A stretch of DNA of 64,000 nucleotides from Methanothrix sp. (GTDB taxonomy: Archaea; Halobacteriota; Methanosarcinia; Methanotrichales; Methanotrichaceae). Every line of letters begins with the position of its first letter. The stretch's first letter is position 1. A program made the position numbers and the translations under genes. The DNA lies in NCBI GenBank assembly GCA_963682135.1, contig OY821645.1:992001-1056000 (forward strand), given 5' to 3'. The notes under the pieces are model-generated. The model saw nothing but the letters and a program-made list of their open reading frames with translations. It did not search any database and had not been told where the DNA came from. Shown one piece after another: positions 18,627 through 52,653 of the stretch.

Positions 18627-18701
18627 TGGGGTTGCTGAGATTCGAACTCAGGTCACAGCGTCCCGAACGCTGTAGGATGGACCAGGCTACCCTACAACCC
18701 C
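18627..18701 (-). tRNA. tRNA-Pro (anticodon CGG), no intron, CCA not encoded
   Basis: GGGGTTG/CAACCCC acceptor stem, CAGCG-TTCGGGA-CGCTG anticodon arm, CTGAG-TTCGAAT-CTCAG T arm; sits between rpoN and rpoK. Confidence 0.96.
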
Positions 18702-32955: not shown

Positions 32956-34259
32956 GTGACTTCCTCCCTTGCCCCTGAAGGGGCAGGGCTTCCTACGTCA
33001 TCGATCTAACTTGCTTTGATATTTTGCTCAAAGTAGGGGTAGGATCTTGATAGGCACTTCCCCTCAGTCCAAGGGTGCGAATGTTTATGCTGGCATTGAT
33101 GTCTCTATCCAGTTCTAAGCCGCAATTAGGGCAAAGGTGGACTCGATCTGCCAGCGTCTTTGGGACCATCATACCACACTGAGAGCATTTTTGAGACGTA
33201 TATCTAGACTCTACCAGTTCCACCATTTTGCCAGCTTTTGCAGCTTTGCTTTGAGTGAACTGGATTAATTTGCCCCATGCGTGATCTTGTATATGCTTTG
33301 CTAGGTGGTGATTCTTGAGCAATCCCTGGATATTCAGGTTTTCAAATACTATTAGATCGGCTGAATCTACAATCTTCCTGGATACCTGATGCAAGAACTC
33401 ATCTCTATGGTTCTGGATCTTCTGATGGAGCTTCGCGACTTTGATTTTGGCCTTTAGCCTACTGCGTGACCCTTTCTTCTTCCTTGACAGATTCCTTTGA
33501 GCTACTGCAAGCTTGTTTTCTGCCTGGATGTAGTATCGCGGATATTCAACCGTTTCACCTGTAGAGAGAGCAACCAGACTATTTAAGCCTACATCTGCAC
33601 CAATAGCGGTCTTTAGCTCGACCAGAGGCACATCCTCTTTTTCAGATACGAGGATCGCATACCAGTGACCCAGATTATCTTTCTTGATGGTGCAAGTCTT
33701 AATCTTGCCTTCAATCTCTCGATGCTTGAAGATCCTGATTGAACCTATCTTAGAGAGAGTCAACTTCGATCCTTCAAGCTTGTAACCGATTTGTGGATAG
33801 GTGAAAGACTTGTACCATCCTTTGCCCTTGAATCGAGGATATCCAGGCTTTTCGCCATTCTTGACCCTTCGGAAGAACGCTTTGAAAGACTTATCTAACC
33901 TGCGAAGGACATCTTGAAGCACTTGAGAAAAGACACCTTTGAAGTTGCCATCTTTTTTCTCTGCAACCAGCATGGCCGCCTGATCCTCGTAGGTTCTGCT
34001 GATGCCTTCAACTTCATAGGCATTCTTCCTGTCGGCCAATGCCTGATTATAGAGATGCCTGTAAGTATCTAGAGTTAGCTCCAATTGGGCTTCATGTTGC
34101 CTATTGGGGTAAATCCTGAACTTGTAGGCAGTCTTCATTGCAGATATTGAATCTTCCTGGAAAAGATATATAGTTAAGCGGCGCGAAGCGAAAGTAATAT
34201 GGAAAGCATACCGCATTCATCCCGCCCCCTAGAGAGAGCGGGTCTTCTGCCTGCTTTCT
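32956..34259 (-). mobile_element. Non-autonomous IS200/IS605-family (IS1341-like) element, tnpB only
   Basis: Left-end hairpin CCCGC..GCGGG at ~34219-34241 preceded by TTAT (minus strand); right-end hairpin at ~32965-32990 ending GGAAGTCAC; no tnpA inside. Confidence 0.85.
32993..34138 (-). CDS. tnpB: RNA-guided endonuclease TnpB (start MKTAYKFRIYP)
   Basis: N-terminal HTH, GYPRFK, RuvC D (GADVG) / E (VFENL) / D (DRDINA), CSQC..CPNC zinc finger. Confidence 0.95.
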   Translation of the reverse strand: MKTAYKFRIYPNRQHEAQLELTLDTYRHLYNQALADRKNAYEVEGISRTYEDQAAMLVAEKKDGNFKGVFSQVLQDVLRRLDKSFKAFFRRVKNGEKPGYPRFKGKGWYKSFTYPQIGYKLEGSKLTLSKIGSIRIFKHREIEGKIKTCTIKKDNLGHWYAILVSEKEDVPLVELKTAIGADVGLNSLVALSTGETVEYPRYYIQAENKLAVAQRNLSRKKKGSRSRLKAKIKVAKLHQKIQNHRDEFLHQVSRKIVDSADLIVFENLNIQGLLKNHHLAKHIQDHAWGKLIQFTQSKAAKAGKMVELVESRYTSQKCSQCGMMVPKTLADRVHLCPNCGLELDRDINASINIRTLGLRGSAYQDPTPTLSKISKQVRSMT

Positions 34260-34922: not shown

Positions 34923-35456
34923 TCAATCCTTCTTGCTCTTTTTGAAGACTGATGCGAGGTCGATAAAATAGGTGCCCTCCTTAACCGCCATAATCAGCTC
35001 ATCTCTCTCGAAAAGAGAGGGCAGATTCAGTTCGTAGGTGCCAGGTGCCGTTATCTTGACGCTTTCCAGAGTCTTCTCTTGAGACTTGACCTTGCCATCA
35101 CTTTGATGGTTATCCTCTAAATGATGGTCTTCATCTAAATGATTTCCTTCATCGAGCTTCTTTGAAGGAATGGAACGGGTTGGTGGAAGCGGCGCGACGG
35201 GAAGAGATTCTTGTGAAGCCTGCATTGTCTCTTCTCTTGCCCCTAATGCCACCGACTCTTTTTCCCTCCTTCTGGGAGGTACACGTACGCCCATTGCTCG
35301 AGTTATAATCTGCTCTGACTGCAAGGCTTGCCCCTTAGAATCCTGTGGCCCCCTTTTAACGAACATGAACTTCTTCCAGCCACAATTCGGGCAGCCCTTC
35401 AGGATATCCTCTCCCGAATCGAAGACGTTGCTGCAGCGTGTACAGATATGAGGCAT
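34923..35456 (-). CDS. oapC: OapC-like zinc-ribbon protein (DUF2072)
   Basis: MPHICTRC..ILKGCPNCG.KKF, ESVKITAPGTYELNL. Confidence 0.85.
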   Translation of the reverse strand: MPHICTRCSNVFDSGEDILKGCPNCGWKKFMFVKRGPQDSKGQALQSEQIITRAMGVRVPPRRREKESVALGAREETMQASQESLPVAPLPPTRSIPSKKLDEGNHLDEDHHLEDNHQSDGKVKSQEKTLESVKITAPGTYELNLPSLFERDELIMAVKEGTYFIDLASVFKKSKKD

Positions 35457-35825
35457 CTAGTCCCCCACGGAGACCTTGGTGCTGATCTGATATTTGTCTT
35501 TCTCAATAGTGCGTAGCTGGTTGGCAGGGCCGATGACTGTCATCCTACCCTTGAGAGTTCTGCCAAATATCTTATCCAAAAATGATCCTTCTTTCTTGGA
35601 AGGATAGCTCTCGATCTCTATTCCGGAGAACTCGTCTACCCGAATCTCGGTCATGGTCATCTCGATAAGGCGCACCTCCTCATCAGAAGTCAGGCCGCAC
35701 TCCAAGACCACAATCTTACCGTTCTTGACCTTGTCCAGGATGAGCCGAATCTTCTCCATGGAGGTCATTTTCTCCAGCTTCTCTCCGGAGATGAGGTCCA
35801 TTTGCACTTCTCTCATCAAGATCAC
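35457..35825 (-). CDS. oapB: OapB-like protein (DUF2073)
   Basis: SMEKIRLILD, GL...EE..LIE.TM, FSGIEIESYP, MTVIGPAN. Confidence 0.88.
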   Translation of the reverse strand: MILMREVQMDLISGEKLEKMTSMEKIRLILDKVKNGKIVVLECGLTSDEEVRLIEMTMTEIRVDEFSGIEIESYPSKKEGSFLDKIFGRTLKGRMTVIGPANQLRTIEKDKYQISTKVSVGD

Positions 35826-36460
35826 CCAAAATGAGCTGCTATCGCCTGATAAAGGTTATCTATATTCGATCCTTCCAGGGCGGAAATTTGCACCATGGCA
35901 TGCTGGGGGAAGGCAGCCTTAATTCTGGCAGGCGAGGCGTTGGGCAGATCCATCTTATTGGCTACAATGAGCAGAGGAAGCTTCCTTGCTTCCATGTTTC
36001 CAATCACTACTACATTGACCTGAGTATAGGGGTCCTCGGTTGAGTCCATAACTAAGAGCACTCCGTCCAGGTCATCCAACCATTTGATGGCTTCTATAAC
36101 GCCTTCCGTAGCTTCTTTTGCCCTCTTCTTGGACTCCGCCTCGGTGAGGCCGAAGGCCATGAACTCCTTGAAGTCAACCTTCGTGGCCATGCCTGGCGTA
36201 TCGACTATATCCAGCTCGATGCTCGACCCATTGGAGCGGATCACCACACCCTCCTTCCTCATGGCCCTGCGAGTCTCATGTGGAATGGGGGAGGCCACAC
36301 CGAAGCTCTCACCTCCACTCCAGTCATGCAGAATCCTGTTGGCCAGGGTAGTCTTTCCTGCATTAGGCGGGCCATAAAGTCCTATTTTGGCCCTCTTTTT
36401 TTTAAATATCCTGTCTATCCATGTCCCAAGGCTCTCCTTGAGGCTACTGATGAAACCCAT
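35822..36460 (-). CDS. oapA: Era-like GTP-binding protein OapA
   Basis: GPPNAGKT, PHETR, DTPG, ANKMD, SAL. Confidence 0.9.
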   Translation of the reverse strand: MGFISSLKESLGTWIDRIFKKKRAKIGLYGPPNAGKTTLANRILHDWSGGESFGVASPIPHETRRAMRKEGVVIRSNGSSIELDIVDTPGMATKVDFKEFMAFGLTEAESKKRAKEATEGVIEAIKWLDDLDGVLLVMDSTEDPYTQVNVVVIGNMEARKLPLLIVANKMDLPNASPARIKAAFPQHAMVQISALEGSNIDNLYQAIAAHFG

Positions 36461-45398: not shown

Positions 45399-46119
45399 TC
45401 AAACTGCACGCGGCCACCCCACCCTAAAGGGATGGGGTATGCTTCGGGCCGCGCGCACGCCCGGTTAGCTGGAGATCAGAAATCATCGAGTCTTCTTTGA
45501 CCAAATTCCTTTGACCTGCAAAATCCCGGCTCTGCTTTTGTTTTCCCTTGTGATTCCATAATGTAGTGCTGTATTGTATCAGCGGTCACATTTCCGACGG
45601 ATCGAAAGAATTTACCACTTGACCACAAGCTTCCGCCCCAAAATCTTTTTTTCAATTCGGGATGAAGCTTGAACATTCTATATGAACTGCCTCCTTTCAA
45701 AAATTGAACGACTCTTGATAGAGAAGAGTTCGGATGGAATTCCAGGAACAAGTGAACATGATCGTCTACAATTTCCATTGCATGAATTTTATAGCCTTGC
45801 TCCATGCAAATTTTGTTGAGAATTAGCTCGCAATCCTTTTTAACTCGCTTGTCATAGAATATCTTGTATCGATACTTTGGCACTAATACGATGTGGTAGG
45901 TAATTTGACCATAGCCATGGCTAAAACTGCGCAATTCCAACGCGTATCACATCCTAGCCATAGGTGGGTGGCACCACCTGTGGCTAAAGTGCCAAATACG
46001 ATTTCATTTTTAAAGAAGCAACGGTTGATCGATATAAGTTAACGCAAAAAACGGCGAGGGTTCACTTCATCCCCAACCTGAAGGTTGGGGTATTCGTGAC
46101 CCTCTGCACTCCCGATGTA
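45399..46119 (-). mobile_element. IS200-like element, tnpA only (ends approximate)
   Basis: Hairpins ACCCCACCCTAAAGGGATGGGGT (~45416-45438) and CCCCAACCTGAAGGTTGGGG (46071-46090) flank tnpA. Confidence 0.85.
45476..45940 (-). CDS. tnpA: IS200/IS605 HUH (Y1) transposase
   Basis: YHIVLVPKYR, DHVHL (HUH), KGGSS, LWS..KF, IQHYI (catalytic Tyr). Confidence 0.95.
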   Translation of the reverse strand: MELRSFSHGYGQITYHIVLVPKYRYKIFYDKRVKKDCELILNKICMEQGYKIHAMEIVDDHVHLFLEFHPNSSLSRVVQFLKGGSSYRMFKLHPELKKRFWGGSLWSSGKFFRSVGNVTADTIQHYIMESQGKTKAEPGFCRSKEFGQRRLDDF

Positions 46120-46266
46120 ATAAAAATTTCTAAGTACAAATAAATTAATTATTGAAAAATATACTATTTATTTATTTAACAGAATACACTTAAATACTAT
46201 ATAGTTTAATATATAACTCTAAATCATCGAAAGACATTTAAGTTGTGTTTCCTTTGCATTCATAAG

Positions 46267-46797
46267 ATGATTCCAGACTTCAATGATCAAGGAAACCTAC
46301 CTTCAGGGATTATTCAGTCTACTTTAGAGGAGTTTGAAACGCGCTTTGTAAATGAAATTGTTGGATCGCAAACAAGAGGAGATATATTTCGCGGTTACAG
46401 CGAATATTGTAGGGCTCTTTTGCCTTTAAATGTGACAACAAAGCAATGGATTAATGGAAGTTATACCACTAATAAAAAAGACCCAAATGATATGGACATG
46501 GTTAATCATCTAGATGCTTTAAAAGTAAATGATAAGGTTATTTATGATAAACTGGTCCAACTTATAAACGATAAATTATATATAATTAAAAAATATAAAT
46601 GCCATACGTTCGGTATTGCCGTATATCCACCAGATCACAAATTATATCAAGAAACTTTAAAATGGAAAGCATATTGGATGGAATGTTTTGGGCAAGATAG
46701 ACAAAAGAGATCTAAAGGTATTATTGAATTTGATCTAATGGAGCGGAACTTTAGATTTAGTGATGGTCCATCTAAGGGTGAAACGAATAATGGCTGA
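46267..46797 (+). CDS. DUF6932-like minimal nucleotidyltransferase
   Basis: MIPDFNDQGNLPSG start, WINGSYTTNKKDPNDMD (GS..DxD), C-terminal FG.DR...KGIIE. Confidence 0.78.
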   Translation: MIPDFNDQGNLPSGIIQSTLEEFETRFVNEIVGSQTRGDIFRGYSEYCRALLPLNVTTKQWINGSYTTNKKDPNDMDMVNHLDALKVNDKVIYDKLVQLINDKLYIIKKYKCHTFGIAVYPPDHKLYQETLKWKAYWMECFGQDRQKRSKGIIEFDLMERNFRFSDGPSKGETNNG

Positions 46798-48067
46798 TAA
46801 ATTCAGGCAACCTTATTTAATCCAAAAAGAGCTTGATCGGCTTAAGGACCTGATCCAAGATAATAGAAGGCTTGTATCCCAATATCCCGAAGAATTGGCA
46901 TTAAAATTGAATCTCATTAGTCTAGAAAATAGAGAAAGTGACGTTTTAAATGAGTTAAACGAGCTAAATAAAAGATTAGGCGCGGATCATTCCTATATTG
47001 CGAAAAACCCACAAGAGGACATATCACCCGTAATTGAATACAAATTAAGCGGCGAATCTGTCTCATTAAGTAATGCACCTGCACAACTTCTAGGCAAGAT
47101 ATTACTCAATATGCAGAATTTAATCTATTCTATTGCAGGCTCGAGCGATAAAATCATTCATTTCGGAGGCAAAAGACCTAAAAGAATGGAATCCCTCTAT
47201 TCCTTGAATGTGAGGCTAATAGAAGGAAGTGTAGCTATGGAATTCGTCCCTGCATTACTTGCACCTACGTTCGAGGACAGAACTGAACAAACCCCGGTTT
47301 TTTATAAAGCATCCAAATTTATTAGTTTATTGCCACATCGAGATATAGAATATGATATATTAAAATTGGAAATTGAGAAACAAATTATTGATCCAAGATC
47401 GAGGATAACTACATTAAATTGTCTAAAGCAACTCATACCTCCTCCCGGAAAGGAGGCAAAAATAAGGTTTATGAATATAAATGGATACTCCTCAGAAATA
47501 GAACTTCATGATGATTTATTCAAACGAAGGGTCGATCAATTGTTAAAAGAAGAGATGAAAAACTATGAAGTTGAAGTTTTCGGAGTTGTAACTAGAATTA
47601 ACGACGACATTCCGCCGTCTTTCATGGTTAAGAATTGGTCGGGAAAATTGGTAAAAGTAAATATGCCTGAAGAGAGAAGGCAACAAATAATTGAATATTT
47701 AGCGGACAGAGTGCCGATTAAAGTTATAGGGGCTGGAAATAAAAAGAAATCGCTTGAAATTACAGATTTAGACGAAATAGAACCAAATACGGATATAGTT
47801 ATTGAATCTATCCAAGATATGATTCTGAAAGCTCCTGTGGAAGTCAAATTATCTTATGAAAGGCATGATAACGAATCAGACTATTGGGTAGTAGGTAATG
47901 AGGAATTAGGGATCTACGGTGTGGAGGATACGGTAGAAAAAGCGAAGCATGCATTTGAAAATGATTTGCATATTGATTATTTGGCATACAAAGAATTAGA
48001 TGATGTCCAATTAACCGATAAGGCATTGGATCTCAAAAGGAAACTTATTAGATTATTTGAAGATTAA
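46790..48067 (+). CDS. 425-aa multidomain hypothetical protein with a C-terminal HicB-like domain
   Basis: Overlaps the upstream stop; N-terminal coiled coil; C-terminal YWVVGNEELGIYGVEDTVEKAKHAFENDL. Confidence 0.65.
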   Translation: MADKFRQPYLIQKELDRLKDLIQDNRRLVSQYPEELALKLNLISLENRESDVLNELNELNKRLGADHSYIAKNPQEDISPVIEYKLSGESVSLSNAPAQLLGKILLNMQNLIYSIAGSSDKIIHFGGKRPKRMESLYSLNVRLIEGSVAMEFVPALLAPTFEDRTEQTPVFYKASKFISLLPHRDIEYDILKLEIEKQIIDPRSRITTLNCLKQLIPPPGKEAKIRFMNINGYSSEIELHDDLFKRRVDQLLKEEMKNYEVEVFGVVTRINDDIPPSFMVKNWSGKLVKVNMPEERRQQIIEYLADRVPIKVIGAGNKKKSLEITDLDEIEPNTDIVIESIQDMILKAPVEVKLSYERHDNESDYWVVGNEELGIYGVEDTVEKAKHAFENDLHIDYLAYKELDDVQLTDKALDLKRKLIRLFED

Positions 48068-48078
48068 GGAGGGGGACG

Positions 48079-48366
48079 ATGGCTGAAAAAAGATTAACTA
48101 TAGATTCAAGTTTAACGAGAAAAGGTTTTAAAAAAAATACGCAAAACAATCATTATTATTATAAATTAATAATAGATGGAAAAATCACAAATATAAGAAC
48201 AAAAATGAGTACTGGCTCAAATCACAAAACAATTGGTGATAACCTTCTTGTTCAGATGTATAAGCAACTAAAGATGAATAACATTGCAGAATTTAGGAAA
48301 TACATTGAATGTACGTATTCTTATGAAAGCTATATAAAATCTCTTAAAGAAAAGAATTATATATAA
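48079..48366 (+). CDS. HicA-like small basic protein (putative RNase toxin)
   Basis: AGGAGG RBS; IDSSLTRKGF..NNHYYYKL..TKMSTGS..TIGDNLL.QM.KQL pattern. Confidence 0.65.
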   Translation: MAEKRLTIDSSLTRKGFKKNTQNNHYYYKLIIDGKITNIRTKMSTGSNHKTIGDNLLVQMYKQLKMNNIAEFRKYIECTYSYESYIKSLKEKNYI

Positions 48367-48458
48367 TTAAGTGAGAAATGGGTGGAGTGTAGTATTAAAA
48401 TCTCTTAATTTCCTTTTCATGCTCCGCTTCAACAGCTCCATCTACTTATTTTTATCGT

Positions 48459-48484
48459 AATACCCCGATGCTTGCATCGGGGAT
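48459..48484. repeat. Orphan IS200/IS605-end-like hairpin
   Basis: Minus-strand ATCCCCGATGCAAGCATCGGGGTATT has the same geometry as plus-strand ATCCCCAACCTGAAGGTTGGGGTATT at 46069-46094. Confidence 0.6.
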
Positions 48485-48499
48485 AAAGGGCATCTGTGT

Positions 48500-48608
48500 C
48501 CAACTTAGGGATAGATCAGATCGATTTAGTACTCTCTTTATGTGGCGGTGCCTCGGATGACCCGTCTGCTTGCAGCGTGGTATGCCGCAGCCGTTTCACT
48601 TCTCGCAC
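48500..48608 (-). other. Possible 5' fragment of a group II intron
   Basis: Minus strand starts GTGCGAGAAGTGAAACGGC and later reads AAAGAGAGTACTAAAT; recalled resemblance to methanogen group II intron 5' ends, unverified. Confidence 0.3.
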
Positions 48609-48724: not shown

Positions 48725-50140
48725 TTGTCAACCAAACTTCGACGTATGGTTTACAATTCAGGAGATGTAATTACGAATCAATCCGCCATAATAATAGTGG
48801 TTTACCTGCTGGCCATGCTGATAATTGGCGCTCGGGGGCTACGTTTGAAGGGTCTGGAAGATTTTCATCTGGCAGGCAGAAATATAAAAGCGATCCTCCT
48901 CACAGGCACCTTTTGTGCAACAATCGTGGGGGCTTCGTCCACCATCGGCATGGCAGGGCTGGGATTTAGGAACGGCCTGCCGGGAGCCTGGTGGATGCTC
49001 TCCGGCACCATTGGAATGCTGGTCCTATCGCTCTTTCTTGCCGGGAAGATCCGCTCCAAGGGTTTCTATACTCTGCCGGAACTGGTGGGCTCATTCTATG
49101 GCGATAAGGTGATGACTGCCGCCTCACTTCTCATCGCCGTCTCCTGGATTGGAGTGATTGCTGTACAGATTGCCGCTGCCGGCAAGGTCCTCAGTGCCAT
49201 CTTTGGAGGAGACGGCACAATATTCATGATTGCCTGTAGCCTGGTATTCATTCTCTATACAGCGCATGGAGGGCAAAGCTCAGTAATCAGAACCGATCTG
49301 GTGCAGTTTCTGATAATAATAACTGGAATGGTTGTCCTATTTTTTGCGGCACTTGATTTTGAAGGAGTAGGCCCTATTTCAAGCCTTAGCTTTCCCACCT
49401 CGGCTCAAATGGGCGGCTGGCAGGTATTATCCATGATAATAGTAGTGGGCTCGGCCTATCTGGTAGGCCCGGATATGTATTCTCGACTGCTTTGCGCCTC
49501 CAGCCCGAGGGATGCTAAAATTTCAGCATTATTCGCGGCCATCATCCTCATACCGCTGGCATTTATCATCACATCCCTGGGCGTGTTCTCCCGATCAATT
49601 CATCCCGCTTCCCCCCCGGAAGATGCCATCTTATCGCTTATGACGGGCCTTCTCTCGCCGGAAATGGTGGGACTGGTGGCTGCAGCTCTTCTGGCGGCAT
49701 TTATGTCATCGGCAGACACGAGCCTCATGACGGTCACATCCATCCTCACCTTCGATATTTATAAAAAGGCAAAGCCCAATGCAGGCACTGCCCATCTGAT
49801 GAACGTCTCCCGGATTGCAGTGGTGCTCATTGGATCCTGTGCCCTTCTCCTGGCAATCTCGCTGCCGGGCATTATCAAGACCCTGCTCATCGCTTACACG
49901 GTTTTCACCAGCGGCCTGCTCCTGCCGACAGTTGCCGGATTCTACAAAGAGCGGCTGGGCCTGACCTCAGGGGGAGCGCTATGTGCTCTCGTAGGTGGAG
50001 GGACAACTGCCCTATTCCTGGGCCAAAGCTTTCCACTGCTGGGCATGGCTGTCTCAGGGGTACTGCTATTGGCCGTAAGCTATCTGGAAAGGCGGCATGC
50101 GAAAGGAAAGGAAAGCCAAGGAGAAAGTACAAATGCTTGA
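48725..50140 (+). CDS. Sodium:solute symporter (SSS/PutP family); start uncertain
   Basis: DFHLAGR, ATIVGAS, YTLPELV, GG..SV..TD.VQ, AAFMSSAD. Confidence 0.92.
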   Translation: MSTKLRRMVYNSGDVITNQSAIIIVVYLLAMLIIGARGLRLKGLEDFHLAGRNIKAILLTGTFCATIVGASSTIGMAGLGFRNGLPGAWWMLSGTIGMLVLSLFLAGKIRSKGFYTLPELVGSFYGDKVMTAASLLIAVSWIGVIAVQIAAAGKVLSAIFGGDGTIFMIACSLVFILYTAHGGQSSVIRTDLVQFLIIITGMVVLFFAALDFEGVGPISSLSFPTSAQMGGWQVLSMIIVVGSAYLVGPDMYSRLLCASSPRDAKISALFAAIILIPLAFIITSLGVFSRSIHPASPPEDAILSLMTGLLSPEMVGLVAAALLAAFMSSADTSLMTVTSILTFDIYKKAKPNAGTAHLMNVSRIAVVLIGSCALLLAISLPGIIKTLLIAYTVFTSGLLLPTVAGFYKERLGLTSGGALCALVGGGTTALFLGQSFPLLGMAVSGVLLLAVSYLERRHAKGKESQGESTNA

Positions 50141-50163
50141 TCGATGTGTATTCTAGGAAAAAT

Positions 50164-52653
50164 ATGACTAGATTTATGATATATATCTTGATAATTCTGG
50201 CGATCGCTAATCCGATTATCGCGACGAATGCAAAGGCGCAAGATATGCCATCCAATTCAGCATCAACTGCAATGAGCGGGATAGATCGTACAATTGCTGA
50301 AAACAATGGGATGAAAATTATTGGGCTTGATATATCAGCGTACCCAAAAATAAAGGTCAATATATTTGCCGATAAATTCTGTGCTCTGTACGGAGATCTC
50401 AAAAAGGAAGACTTCAGGGTTATGGAAGATAAGAGTGATACTACTATCAGCAATTTCTATTTCACGGGCAATGCAACAGGACAAAAGCTTGATCTGGCGA
50501 TCGTCTTTGATGAAACAACCAGCATGGATAGCGAAATAAATGCATTAAAATCGAAGATCAAAGACCTGACTCAAAAGATCAATTCAAGCAGGCTTGATGC
50601 CAGATATTCTTTGGTCACATTCAATGGTGCTGATGTGGCAACGAAGACCAATTGGACCGATGACGCCGGCTCATTTAGAAATGCCATAGGCAGACTCACT
50701 ATCTCAGGGGGAAATCCTGATTTACCAGAAAATTCGCTAGACGGGATAGAGAGGGCGCTGTCTTTTGGATTCAGACCAGAGGCCCAGAAGATCATCATCG
50801 TGGCAACGGATGAACCATCCCAGCAGAAAGGTGATGGAAAATCCAAATCCGTTTATGCAATGGATGATGTCAAGAACGATCTTTTGAAATCCGGTGCCAT
50901 GCTAATTGCCGTCTCTCCGGATTTTCGTAATGCAAATGTCGAAGCTAATGTGCCACGTTCGGATCTGGCAAAGTATGCAGATATGAGAAAGCTGGCAAAT
51001 GAATCCGCCAGCCTGTGGATTGATATAAAAACGGCAGATTTCTCAGAAATATTAAGGCAAATCCAAGGGATACTCACAGGTACATATGTTATCGAGTACA
51101 CATCTGGCAACAAGACACCTTCCGAGAACAGAACGGTCTTTGTCTCTATTGATGCGCCGGGATGCTTGAGAGGCGATGTCTCTGGTGCTTACACCTCGCC
51201 GGGGAGCGCAGCGGCAAACAATGTTCCGCCAGTCATAACCAGCCTGACATCGGATAAGTCAAGCCCACAGGAAGCAGGCACAGTCATATTATGGACGGCT
51301 AATGCATCAGATCCAGATGGCGATTTGATACAATACAAGTTCTACTTAAACGGACTTCCTGCAACCAATTGGCAGTTAAGTAACCAGTGGCCCTGGATCA
51401 CATTTGAAGGCGAATTTCAGGTAGAGGTCCAGGTAAGGGATGGAATGCATGCCGGGCCCAATGAAACGGATGACCGGAAGTGGCAAATATATGAGATAAA
51501 TGCGCCTGCTATTGTTAAAGATATTGAAGAGACCAAAGAGCCTCATGAGTACTCTTGGCAGAAGACCTTTGGAGGATTGTCGGATGATATTGGCGCTGCG
51601 ATCCTGCAGACCTCGGAAGGCGGCTACATAATGACAGGTCATACATCATCTTATGGTGCAGGCGGGATGGATATCTGGATGATCAAGACCGATGCCCAAG
51701 GTAATGAGATATGGAGTGAAACTCTTGGTGGCAAGGGCGATGAATTTGTCACTTCCGTCCAGCAGACTTCTGATGACGGCTATATCATGGTTGGCATAAC
51801 ATCATCTTATGGATCAGGGGGAAGAGATCTATGGATGACAAAGACAGATGCACTGGGAAATAAGCAGTGGGATAAAACCTTCGGAGGATCGTGGGATGAT
51901 GGCGGCATTTCTGTCCGGCAGACCAGGGACGGCGGATTTATCGCAACTGGTGCAACAGGCTCTTTTGGTCCGAGTGTTGTCTGGCTGATCAAGACCGATC
52001 CTAACGGAAACAAAGAATGGGATAAGACCATCTCCCCCGAAGGTGATGTCGGGGAAATGTCCACCGGGTCCTCAGTCCAACAGACCGATGATGGTGGCTA
52101 CATCATTGCCGGCGATTCCTCTAAGGAGAGTGTCTTGCTGATCAAGACTGATGCTCAAGGTAACAAACAGTGGGAGAAGATCTTCGGGGGACTGGCAAGT
52201 GATGGTGCAAACGTTAACGCCAACAGCAGAATCTTGCAGACCTCTGATGGCGGCTATATCATAGATAGCTATACTTCTCAGAATGGTGCAGGGGGAATGG
52301 ATCTTTGGCTGATTAAGGCCGATGCCAAAGGTAATGAGATCTGGAATAAGACTTATGGCGGCAAGGGCGATGACTTTGGCACCACTATTCAGCAGACCTC
52401 GGATGACGGCTATATCATAACCGGCCACACATCTTCTTATGGCGCAGGCGGGATGGATCTATGGATGATCAAGATCGATGCCGCAGGTAATGAGATCTGG
52501 AGTAAGACCTTTGGCGGCAAGGGCGATGACTTTGGCGCTGCGATCCAGCAGACCACAGATGGCGGCTATATCATGACAGGCCGTACATCATCTTATGGTG
52601 CCGGCGGCATGGACCTATGGATGATCAAGACCGATGCTAACGGAAATGTGTAA
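50164..52653 (+). CDS. Secreted VWA-domain protein with an Ig-like spacer and beta-propeller-like repeats (start moved to 50164)
   Basis: Signal peptide; MIDAS-like DETTSM, PENSLDG, VATDE; about seven W.KTFGG...QQT.DGGYI...IKTD..GN repeats. Confidence 0.88.
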   Translation: MTRFMIYILIILAIANPIIATNAKAQDMPSNSASTAMSGIDRTIAENNGMKIIGLDISAYPKIKVNIFADKFCALYGDLKKEDFRVMEDKSDTTISNFYFTGNATGQKLDLAIVFDETTSMDSEINALKSKIKDLTQKINSSRLDARYSLVTFNGADVATKTNWTDDAGSFRNAIGRLTISGGNPDLPENSLDGIERALSFGFRPEAQKIIIVATDEPSQQKGDGKSKSVYAMDDVKNDLLKSGAMLIAVSPDFRNANVEANVPRSDLAKYADMRKLANESASLWIDIKTADFSEILRQIQGILTGTYVIEYTSGNKTPSENRTVFVSIDAPGCLRGDVSGAYTSPGSAAANNVPPVITSLTSDKSSPQEAGTVILWTANASDPDGDLIQYKFYLNGLPATNWQLSNQWPWITFEGEFQVEVQVRDGMHAGPNETDDRKWQIYEINAPAIVKDIEETKEPHEYSWQKTFGGLSDDIGAAILQTSEGGYIMTGHTSSYGAGGMDIWMIKTDAQGNEIWSETLGGKGDEFVTSVQQTSDDGYIMVGITSSYGSGGRDLWMTKTDALGNKQWDKTFGGSWDDGGISVRQTRDGGFIATGATGSFGPSVVWLIKTDPNGNKEWDKTISPEGDVGEMSTGSSVQQTDDGGYIIAGDSSKESVLLIKTDAQGNKQWEKIFGGLASDGANVNANSRILQTSDGGYIIDSYTSQNGAGGMDLWLIKADAKGNEIWNKTYGGKGDDFGTTIQQTSDDGYIITGHTSSYGAGGMDLWMIKIDAAGNEIWSKTFGGKGDDFGAAIQQTTDGGYIMTGRTSSYGAGGMDLWMIKTDANGNV
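51550..52650 (+). repeat. ~150-bp coding tandem repeats (beta-propeller-like blades)
   Basis: Near-identical nucleotide copies such as ACATCATCTTATGGTGC.GGCGG.ATGGA, GGCAAGGGCGATGA, GGCTATATC. Confidence 0.85.

Follow-up and report, generated by a model that had tools for sequence, protein, structure and literature searches.

The stretch of DNA analyzed here comprises 64,000 nucleotides of a Methanothrix sp. genome (GenBank assembly GCA_963682135.1, contig OY821645.1, positions 992,001 to 1,056,000; hereafter the window) and harbors three consecutive forward-strand genes, which an earlier note, made from the letters and their translations alone, had put forward as a candidate three-component toxin–antitoxin (TA) or defence operon. 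The combination of domain searches, structural models and comparisons with other loci revealed that this cassette combines two modules, one of DUF6932 (PDC-M63-like) and one of Class 8 hicBA, which meet in a single hub protein. We consider it probable that the cassette is a composite operon and constitutes a two-toxin, one-antitoxin unit, in which the product of gene 2 would act as the antitoxin hub for both toxins. The coordinates of the genes, of the domains of gene 2 and of the surrounding sequence signals are collected in table 1.

Table 1. Genes, domains of gene 2 and sequence signals of the cassette and its borders (positions are those of the window).
Feature	Coordinates	Strand	Size or content	Assignment or basis
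IS200-type Y1 transposase gene	45476..45940	-		PF01797, E 1.3e-36
Hairpin between IS200 transposase gene and gene 1	46071..46090		CCCCAACC/GGTTGGGG	sequence
AT-rich TATA-like stretch, candidate archaeal promoter element	46207..46218	+	TTTAATATATAA, ~50 nt 5' of gene 1	suggested by the sequence
Gene 1	46267..46797	+	176 aa, ATG start	open reading frame; DUF6932, minimal nucleotidyltransferase-like, proposed toxin/effector
Gene 2	46790..48067	+	425 aa	open reading frame
Gene 2, helical hairpin (H8-31, H36-62), proposed gene 1-binding module	46790..46975	+	aa 1-62	AlphaFold2 model
Gene 2, low-confidence linker	46976..47029	+	aa 63-80	AlphaFold2 model
Gene 2, alpha/beta domain, matches Class 8 HicB N-terminal domain	47030..47434	+	aa 81-215	AlphaFold2 model; hhalign; PMC10865869
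Gene 2, OB-fold-like beta domain, the Class 8 HicB LysRS-like middle	47453..47785	+	aa 222-332	local Foldseek; PMC10865869
Gene 2, beta-beta-beta-alpha-alpha, proposed HicA-binding HicB-type domain	47792..48067	+	aa 335-425 + stop	AlphaFold2 model
Gap between genes 2 and 3	48068..48078	+	11 bp, strong Shine-Dalgarno GGAGGGGG for gene 3	read from sequence
Gene 3	48079..48366	+	95 aa	open reading frame; divergent HicA (Class 8 type)
Oligo-T run, then hairpin	48447..48482	+	TTATTTTTAT at 48447-48456, then CCCCGATGC/GCATCGGGG at 48463-48482	read from sequence

The tight coupling of the three genes described in the earlier note proved exact in the sequence, including the strong ribosome-binding site of gene 3. 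Genes 1 and 2 overlap by 8 bp (46790-46797), and their translation is therefore likely coupled; the sequence GGGTGA is located 8 nt ahead of the gene 2 ATG. A TTG at 46243, upstream of the ATG, comprises a possible alternative start for gene 1, against which stands the family N-terminus MIPxF, kept in 12 of the 12 alignment rows, one of them with extra preceding residues. The AT-richness of the region relative to its surroundings was likewise borne out, with a GC content of 0.30-0.36 in the five 500-bp segments covering 46000-48499 and of 0.41-0.57 in the flanks on both sides. These are real genes rather than chance open reading frames, because gene 1 exceeds the threshold of a curated Pfam family and homologs were found for genes 2 and 3.

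Gene 1 encodes a full-length DUF6932 protein (Pfam PF22014, E 3.4e-33, 115.5 bits against a cut-off of 27), which also matched the PADLOC profile PDC-M63A (PDLC04744; E 2.7e-22, aa 11-157 on profile positions 10-149 of 152) and phrog_9194, a family with no assigned function (E 3.9e-27). The GS..DxD signature of Pol-beta-type nucleotidyltransferases (NTases), pointed out in the earlier note, is present in the motif INGSYTTNKKDPNDMD at aa 62-77. It belongs to a set of residues (G64 S65, P73, D75, D77, F141, D144 R145, K150 G151) that was invariant in all 21 sequences of a DUF6932 alignment spanning archaea, Planctomycetes, Cyanobacteria, and enterobacterial and streptococcal phages. In the AlphaFold2 (AF2) model of gene 1, obtained with a predicted local distance difference test (pLDDT) of 87.7 and a predicted template-modelling score (pTM) of 0.82, the GS turn follows helix 37-54 and strand 57-64, and the DxD motif lies on strand 76-83; as modelled, this is the order expected for a Pol-beta NTase. 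The top Foldseek matches in the PDB were minimal NTases (2rff, MntA 7bxo, AadA, MNT 7aer and HI0073), all of them weak. By sequence, the comparison of genes 1-3 with PDB chains gave nothing significant (best E 0.22, 0.64 and 0.5), none of the three genes matched NCBIfam, and a scan of genome contigs with gene 1 as a single-protein query returned only two distant bacterial loci. A literature search retrieved no mention of DUF6932 by name, and PDC-M63 came up in a single paper. A recorded protein of 101 aa (P0190) is identical to the last 57% of gene 1 (46492-46797) and starts at M76; a gene call of this type drops the GS turn and D75, and would thus hide the NTase motif from annotation.

The AF2 model of gene 2 (pLDDT 84.1) is organized in five parts, starting with the helical hairpin and ending with the HicB-type domain. 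This layout, together with Foldseek and the Class 8 match described below, agrees with the earlier proposal of a large HicB-type protein with an N-terminal coiled coil and an OB-like segment (VFGVVTRIND...FMVK, present in gene 2). Foldseek against the PDB yielded local OB-fold matches to SSB, RPA, PriB, IF1 and the lysyl-tRNA synthetases 1bbw/6hcu/4ycv (probability ~1.0, E 0.04-0.1) and no match at E <= 0.001. Against viral models, significant matches were obtained with Q6NE06 (E 3e-9), A0A8S5T657 (E 1.3e-8) and the DUF6575 protein A0A8S5QA00 (E 5.7e-8), all of them uncharacterised phage proteins. Protein Atlas returned only unnamed clusters (0.94-0.96), with DUF6575 (0.80) and PHD_like (0.77) as leads below 0.9.

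Gene 2 has 35 homologs at E <= 1e-3 (self included), and those with a named source come from Methanothrix sp. and a Methanotrichaceae archaeon. Fourteen of the 35 cover 99-100% of gene 2, hairpin included, at 50-77% identity, and the other 21 cover 65-85%. Similarly, in an alignment of 26 sequences the hairpin is found in nine, and the remaining 17 lack it and start near aa 80. Short stand-alone relatives of the C-terminal domain, sought in a region-limited search, amounted to two fragments of the same family, and tblastn of gene 2 against plasmids gave no match.

Gene 3 belongs to a large family (637 cluster representatives at E <= 1e-3, of which 43 reach E <= 1e-10), whose consensus KKGF..DH..Y...GK.T.I.TK.S.G precedes a C-terminal extension containing an invariant Cys. 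At least 90% of 76 family members have His25, which falls opposite the His of Escherichia coli HicA in the alignment, and the extension (invariant C78, conserved Y85 and L89) occurs in 76 of the 76 aligned members. The HicA-like character suggested by the earlier note is supported by the family profile, which aligned with E. coli HicA from end to end and kept the His in register (hhalign probability 61%, E 8e-5, 57 columns), and by the Pfam family HicA_toxin (PF07927), matched by 39 of the 76 members at E <= 1 (best 1e-6). We therefore read gene 3, from its sequence, as a putative RNase toxin of the double-stranded RNA-binding domain (dsRBD) type, that is, a divergent HicA; its fold is taken by analogy from the published description of Class 8 HicA (PMC10865869). 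In the PDB, the best match of the family profile was a cytochrome (E 0.015), judged to be due to chance. No plasmid was matched by tblastn with either gene 3 or a second family member (P0139), and among phages gene 3 matched only the archaeal virus Methanocaldococcus fervens tailed virus 1 (MFTV1), in two records of one virus.

This viral match extends to gene 2 as well. MFTV1 gp37 is 40% identical to gene 3, and upstream of gp37, overlapping it, lies gp38 (328 aa), which matches the gene 2 family end to end save for the hairpin, which gp38 lacks. The gene 2 family aligned with gp38 over 308 columns, covering gene 2 aa 76-415 (hhalign probability 97.9%, E 3.3e-13), and BLASTP detected gp38 at E 5e-14. 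The upstream gp39 showed no DUF6932 match, and a literature search combining MFTV1 with toxin gave nothing useful. In the virus (L007, 1480-2773) the Class 8 hicBA pair is annotated as hypothetical proteins.

Class 8 hicBA has been described in silico by Gerdes (2024, mBio; PMC10865869), and genes 2 and 3 match this described system in the portions of the survey that concern it. According to that description, Class 8 HicA is ~95 aa long with two extra C-terminal helices, and Class 8 HicB consists of an N domain of unknown type, a lysyl-tRNA-synthetase-like middle and a C-terminal HicB fold, with no DNA-binding domain. The HicB entries of its Table S1 measure 331-376 aa and come from Thermococcus, Methanoregula, Methanomicrobium, Methanoplanus, Archaeoglobus, Pyrococcus, Syntrophomonas and Thermincola, that is, mostly archaea and some Firmicutes; no Methanothrix or Methanosaeta entry was seen in the table. 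The cassette shares with Class 8 the position of hicB directly 5' of a closely linked hicA, the length of HicA with a conserved C-terminal extension beyond the dsRBD, and, in gene 2, the modelled order and sizes of the three domains and the lack of a recognisable DNA-binding domain. By eye, the table sequences clearly belong to the families of genes 2 and 3, the pattern F..F(V/I)(D/E)C...Y..YL recurs in the Class 8 HicA sequences, and MFTV1 gp38/gp37 resemble the Thermococcus entries. Gene 2 is nevertheless longer than the Class 8 HicB proteins because of the extra N-terminal helical hairpin and linker (~80 aa) and, unlike in Class 8, a DUF6932 gene precedes and overlaps hicB. Neither such an extension nor an upstream NTase gene was found in the survey's passages on Class 8, and the words nucleotidyltransferase and tricistronic have no occurrence in its main text. 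With respect to these parts of the source, the N-terminal helical hairpin (aa 1-62) on a Class 8-type HicB is new here. The gene 3 family aligns with the whole of the canonical HicA of E. coli K-12, the His of the catalytic region among the aligned residues. Compared with that HicAB pair, the two genes stand in the opposite order, the HicA protein here is the longer one, and gene 2 is three times larger than HicB, bears no helix-turn-helix (HTH) or ribbon-helix-helix domain and has no detectable sequence similarity to E. coli HicB.

The other half of the cassette became apparent from the genes that follow DUF6932 elsewhere. The downstream gene was examined in 12 other loci (L001-L005 and L008-L014), namely two planctomycete metagenome-assembled genomes (L001, L002), three cyanobacterial plasmids (L003-L005), Streptococcus phage MissE1, the satellite Javan304, the phages mEpX1, vB_EhrS_59 and PhiR30_1, a Klebsiella prophage region and an Aeromonas record. 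All 12 carry a same-strand gene directly 3' of DUF6932, whose start lies within 4 nt of the DUF6932 stop; the junction is a 4-bp overlap in ten loci and a gap of 2 or 4 nt in two. The partners are diverse: they comprise 55-69 aa in three loci (L001, L002, L008), 172 aa with an HTH in two, 488 aa with HTH_3 (E 2.4e-10) and Peptidase_M78 (E 1.5e-7) in one (L005, a Nostoc plasmid), and 294-310 aa of the PDC-M63B type in six. When five of them were aligned with gene 2 aa 1-75, a common N-terminal two-helix pattern with an L..EI..YE-like end emerged. An HTH-bearing partner fits the usual layout of autoregulating antitoxins, and type II antitoxins are typically built in this way, with a shared N-terminal module carried by differing bodies, several of which bind DNA. 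Given this shared module on variable, partly DNA-binding bodies, we infer by analogy that DUF6932 is the neutralised effector and the helical hairpin its neutralising element. A toxic NTase would have a precedent in AbiEii/MenT, where an NTase is the toxin of a TA or abortive-infection pair; those proteins are larger than gene 1 and have different antitoxins, and their families gave no Pfam or PADLOC match to gene 1 at E <= 1.

With regard to the setting of these pairs, they stand immediately after the repressor gene in all four lambdoid prophage or phage loci. In the Nostoc plasmid (L005, 2938-4404) the partner is fused to an HTH and an ImmA/IrrE-type M78 peptidase, and in Streptococcus phage MissE1 (L008, 2453-3011) a separate ImmA/IrrE gene comes after the 55-aa partner, so that in these loci DUF6932 is repeatedly tied to protease-controlled repressor modules.

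The complex of gene 1 with the gene 2 N-terminus (aa 1-80), whose modelling the earlier note had suggested, was predicted with a score of 0.90 (runs 0.90, 0.90 and 0.91), compared with 0.51 for the best of three controls. Of 80 solved complexes, 58 reach the mark applied, as do 2 of 110 mismatched pairs; these counts hold only roughly, because our own alignments were used for the prediction. Contacts agree between the runs to at least 86%, with a partner pLDDT of 78 or more. The predicted interface occupies residues 79-103, 115-120 and 126-147 of gene 1, adjoining the DxD strand, H113 and D144/R145, and such a footprint would suit inhibition by occlusion. Binding of the hairpin to gene 1 is thus supported at the level of the model; a similar solved complex is not known to us.

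The same interface can be brought into line with a different role for gene 1, as a modifying co-antitoxin or regulator resembling the NTases of the type VII MNT-HEPN systems, which would nucleotidylate HicA or gene 2 and thereby silence the RNase, the hairpin being a docking site or substrate arm. Gene 1 resembles those small Pol-beta-type NTases in its GS...DxD motif; its closest folds, though weak, are MNT antitoxins (MntA 7bxo, MNT 7aer/7ae9/8xeo, HI0073), and the predicted binding to gene 2 would put it near HicA. MNT antitoxins transfer nucleoside monophosphate to the HEPN toxin, as reported in the pertinent part of PMC11586414. We nonetheless judge this role rather improbable, since DUF6932 pairs occur with no HicA or HEPN gene, the partners of just 55-69 aa leave no obvious toxin to neutralise, and the partners with an HTH or an HTH and peptidase resemble antitoxins or regulators rather than toxins. 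Moreover, Class 8 hicBA is an NTase-free pair in MFTV1, and the Class 8 table rows covered here give only hicBA pairs and mention no NTase gene (PMC10865869). In MNT-HEPN the NTase is the antitoxin, whereas the partner architecture here points to the NTase as the neutralised party, and DUF6932 has invariant motifs of its own, MIPxF...G.LP.G at the N-terminus and FG.DR...KG at the C-terminus. Membership of the MNT-HEPN group itself was rejected because no HEPN gene adjoins the NTase; in Pfam and PADLOC searches, no HEPN match was obtained for genes 2 and 3 or for four of the partners (P0199-P0202; L001, L003-L005).

The system closest to the NTase half is PDC-M63 (e.g., phage mEpX1 gp42/gp41), a PADLOC candidate and as such a prediction. 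Besides the strong match of gene 1 to its A component, the B gene follows A with an overlap and opens with a coiled-coil or hairpin region, as gene 2 does. The similarity of gene 2 to the B component is weak and falls short of any safe cut-off: the PDC-M63B profile (PDLC04749) matched at E 0.0035, with aa 14-119 on positions 9-98 of 309 (29% of the profile), the comparison with mEpX1 gp41 was marginal (hhalign probability 5%, E 0.0074), and a six-sequence PDC-M63B alignment gave a probability of 3-4% (E 0.01-0.016). PDC-M63B (~310 aa) differs from gene 2 in lacking a HicB-type C-terminal domain and in having no hicA gene after it. Hence, the statement of the earlier note that the arrangement is not a named system was only partly upheld: genes 2 and 3 match Class 8 hicBA (PMC10865869), and gene 1 with the start of gene 2 corresponds to PDC-M63AB, strongly for A and only weakly for B. 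Each half is already catalogued or described, and within the sources covered only the fusion of the two modules is uncatalogued.

Several observations weigh against the composite TA reading. On the side of gene 1, the Foldseek search of the PDB produced no match at E <= 0.001 (best E 0.025, TM 0.27-0.38). In addition, H113 (codon 46603-46605), at the start of strand 112-119, occupies the place of the expected third metal-binding carboxylate of an NTase; the position is D/E in 16 of the 19 relatives having the segment, and a His there is confined to gene 1 and its two nearest relatives (P0188, P0189). This copy of gene 1 may therefore be altered or inactive, its chemistry changed or its activity lost. 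On the side of the HicA/HicB pair, Pfam returned nothing for gene 3 itself at E <= 1, a profile of the gene 2 C-terminal domain (11 sequences) found no HicB in the PDB, and this domain aligned with E. coli HicB with an hhalign probability of 0.5% (E 0.11). The Class 8 description, as far as seen, calls the corresponding domain a HicB fold, with a Phyre confidence below 90% in its table (PMC10865869). PHD_like (PF12910) gave weak, sub-threshold matches to this domain in 8 of 26 family members (best E 0.031) and to MFTV1 gp38 (E 0.0021). The PDC-M63B body appears colinear with gene 2 aa 80-335, which is suggestive; in hhalign and hmmsearch comparisons with the Class 8 HicB body the scores were 7-9 bits and 3-5% probability, and homology is marginal and unproven. 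As to function, the sole published test of PDC-M63AB found, a deletion in the native E. coli host challenged with 10 phages, reported no defence in the part of the source covered. Finally, the triad was not seen at a second DNA locus, its recurrence across genomes not having been surveyed, and a location in a defence island was rejected for this locus because the neighbors are housekeeping genes, apart from the IS200 transposase gene.

The altered residue of gene 1 brings up the possibility that the two halves do not cooperate at all, the fusion being accidental and without cross-talk, or the NTase half decaying, so that the cassette would functionally be a Class 8 hicBA with a DUF6932 remnant whose small partner became joined to hicB. 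Apart from H113, this would be in keeping with the frequent clustering of TA genes (PMC10865869), with the 21 of 35 gene 2 homologs of partial coverage and the 17 aligned ones that have no hairpin, and with P0190, which begins after D75. We hold it to be unlikely. The hairpin-bearing form has persisted in proteins whose identity to gene 2 is only 50-77% (14 of 35), and relatives of gene 1 show a like divergence in the same sample type: the homolog search gave 11 matches including a self-fragment, eight of which cover 92-100% of gene 1 at 46-78% identity. Every other invariant DUF6932 residue is intact in gene 1, the 8-bp overlap implies coupled translation, and the predicted interface is confident. 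The mirrored divergence of the gene 1 relatives and the hairpin-bearing forms of gene 2 fits co-inheritance of the two genes, judging from sequence comparison.

Two further records from the same source type, both with a longest contig of 4080 bases, hold a 110-aa fragment related to gene 1 (P0192) and a 112-aa C-terminal fragment related to gene 2 (P0205); these may represent a broken copy of the same operon.

The cassette is surrounded by genes for a pyridoxal-phosphate decarboxylase, a sodium:solute symporter, permeases and biosynthetic functions, together with the IS200-type transposase gene, which probably lies outside the system and whose presence next door the earlier note had recognised correctly. 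The oligo-T run and hairpin after gene 3 probably mark, as read from the letters, the end of the transcription unit. The proximity of the transposase gene leaves room for a reading outside TA biology, in which gene 2 would be an OB-fold nucleic-acid binder serving a mobile element (IS200 or a lost virus) and genes 1 and 3 accessory processing enzymes. Related pairs are indeed found in viruses, and the fold matches of gene 2 to uncharacterised phage proteins (Q6NE06, A0A8S5T657, A0A8S5QA00) point the same way. This explanation nonetheless seems to us very improbable: HicA is an established RNase toxin family (PMC10865869), the gene pairs recur independent of any single mobile element, and neither a second IS copy nor terminal repeats flank the cassette. 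Specifically, blastn detected no second IS200 copy within the window, and a repeat search around the cassette found no notable terminal repeats or target duplications.

The two G/C-capped hairpins (46071-46090 and 48463-48482) that flank the low-GC cassette may be IS200 ends, terminators or repetitive extragenic palindromic (REP)-like elements; the second has a direct copy of 71% identity at 48553-48580 (repeat family D2). Rfam gave no match at E <= 0.1 between 44500 and 49000, and no tRNA gene lies near the cassette, the sole one of the window being at 18627-18701. Farther away, an IS605 OrfB/TnpB-type gene (32993-34216, minus strand; OrfB_IS605, Cas12f1-like TNB and HTH_OrfB_IS605 domains) is separate from the IS200 TnpA gene, 11 kb apart. 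On the same strand, the origin-associated genes OapC (E 1e-39) and OapB (E 9e-45) at 34923-36460, with an adjoining GTPase gene, suggest by their sequence that a chromosomal replication origin is nearby. On the plus strand, 49981-52653 encodes a large protein in which a von Willebrand A domain precedes numerous repeats of ~45 aa (DGGYI..G.T.S.G.GG.D.W..K.D..GN).

Together, the gene identities, the domain layout, the recurrence of each pair and the predicted binding of the hairpin to gene 1 lead us back to the two-toxin, one-antitoxin reading. The notion of one scaffold gating two activities, already advanced in the earlier note, is also our best reading, and the complex prediction supports its gene 1 part. 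Toxicity, neutralisation, trigger, target and any defence role would fit together as follows. Two separate two-gene modules would have been joined through their non-toxic partners, the first comprising the DUF6932 minimal NTase (gene 1) and a helical-hairpin partner, and the second, Class 8 hicBA, a large three-domain HicB followed by the 95-aa HicA RNase (gene 3). The fusion of the hairpin to the N-terminus of HicB in this lineage would make gene 2 a single hub able to hold both proteins. In the resting cell, the hairpin (aa 1-62) would cover the gene 1 face beside the DxD strand and block gene 1, and the C-terminal HicB-type domain (aa 335-425) would hold HicA. Once gene 2 is degraded or titrated, or its production stops, both effectors would be released; a ligand at the OB domain might also release them. 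Freed HicA would then cleave RNA, the freed NTase would nucleotidylate some target, and growth would stop, with the outcome that the element is stabilised or an infection aborted. The window copy, a low-GC islet beside an IS200 transposase gene, is in keeping with the habit of a mobile element.

A broader version of this proposal, which we offer only tentatively and regard as somewhat doubtful, takes DUF6932 as a new family of NTase toxins neutralised by a portable hairpin of ~60 aa, which would be attached to nothing, to an HTH, to an HTH and ImmA-type peptidase, to a PDC-M63B body or to a Class 8 HicB. The Methanothrix hub would then hold NTase and HicA under one trigger, possibly sensed by the OB domain, as an abortive-infection or addiction unit.

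The regulation of Class 8 and its large HicB were left open in the 2024 survey, in the parts covered here (PMC10865869). If the proposed reading fails, what is left is an archaeal Class 8 hicBA beside a decaying NTase gene. If it is true, the cassette would extend Class 8 hicBA by presenting the HicB body as a platform for a second effector, and it would be an example from nature of a single antitoxin in charge of two unrelated toxins, which bears on the recombination of TA modules and on the question of joint action by paired effectors in defence. It would also make a testable claim of a short, modular helical hairpin as the neutralising element for DUF6932, and would give the first mechanistic handle on DUF6932/PDC-M63, which is widespread in prophages right after the repressor gene. 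The main value of the finding lies in the concrete hypothesis that it offers for the uncharacterised DUF6932 family.

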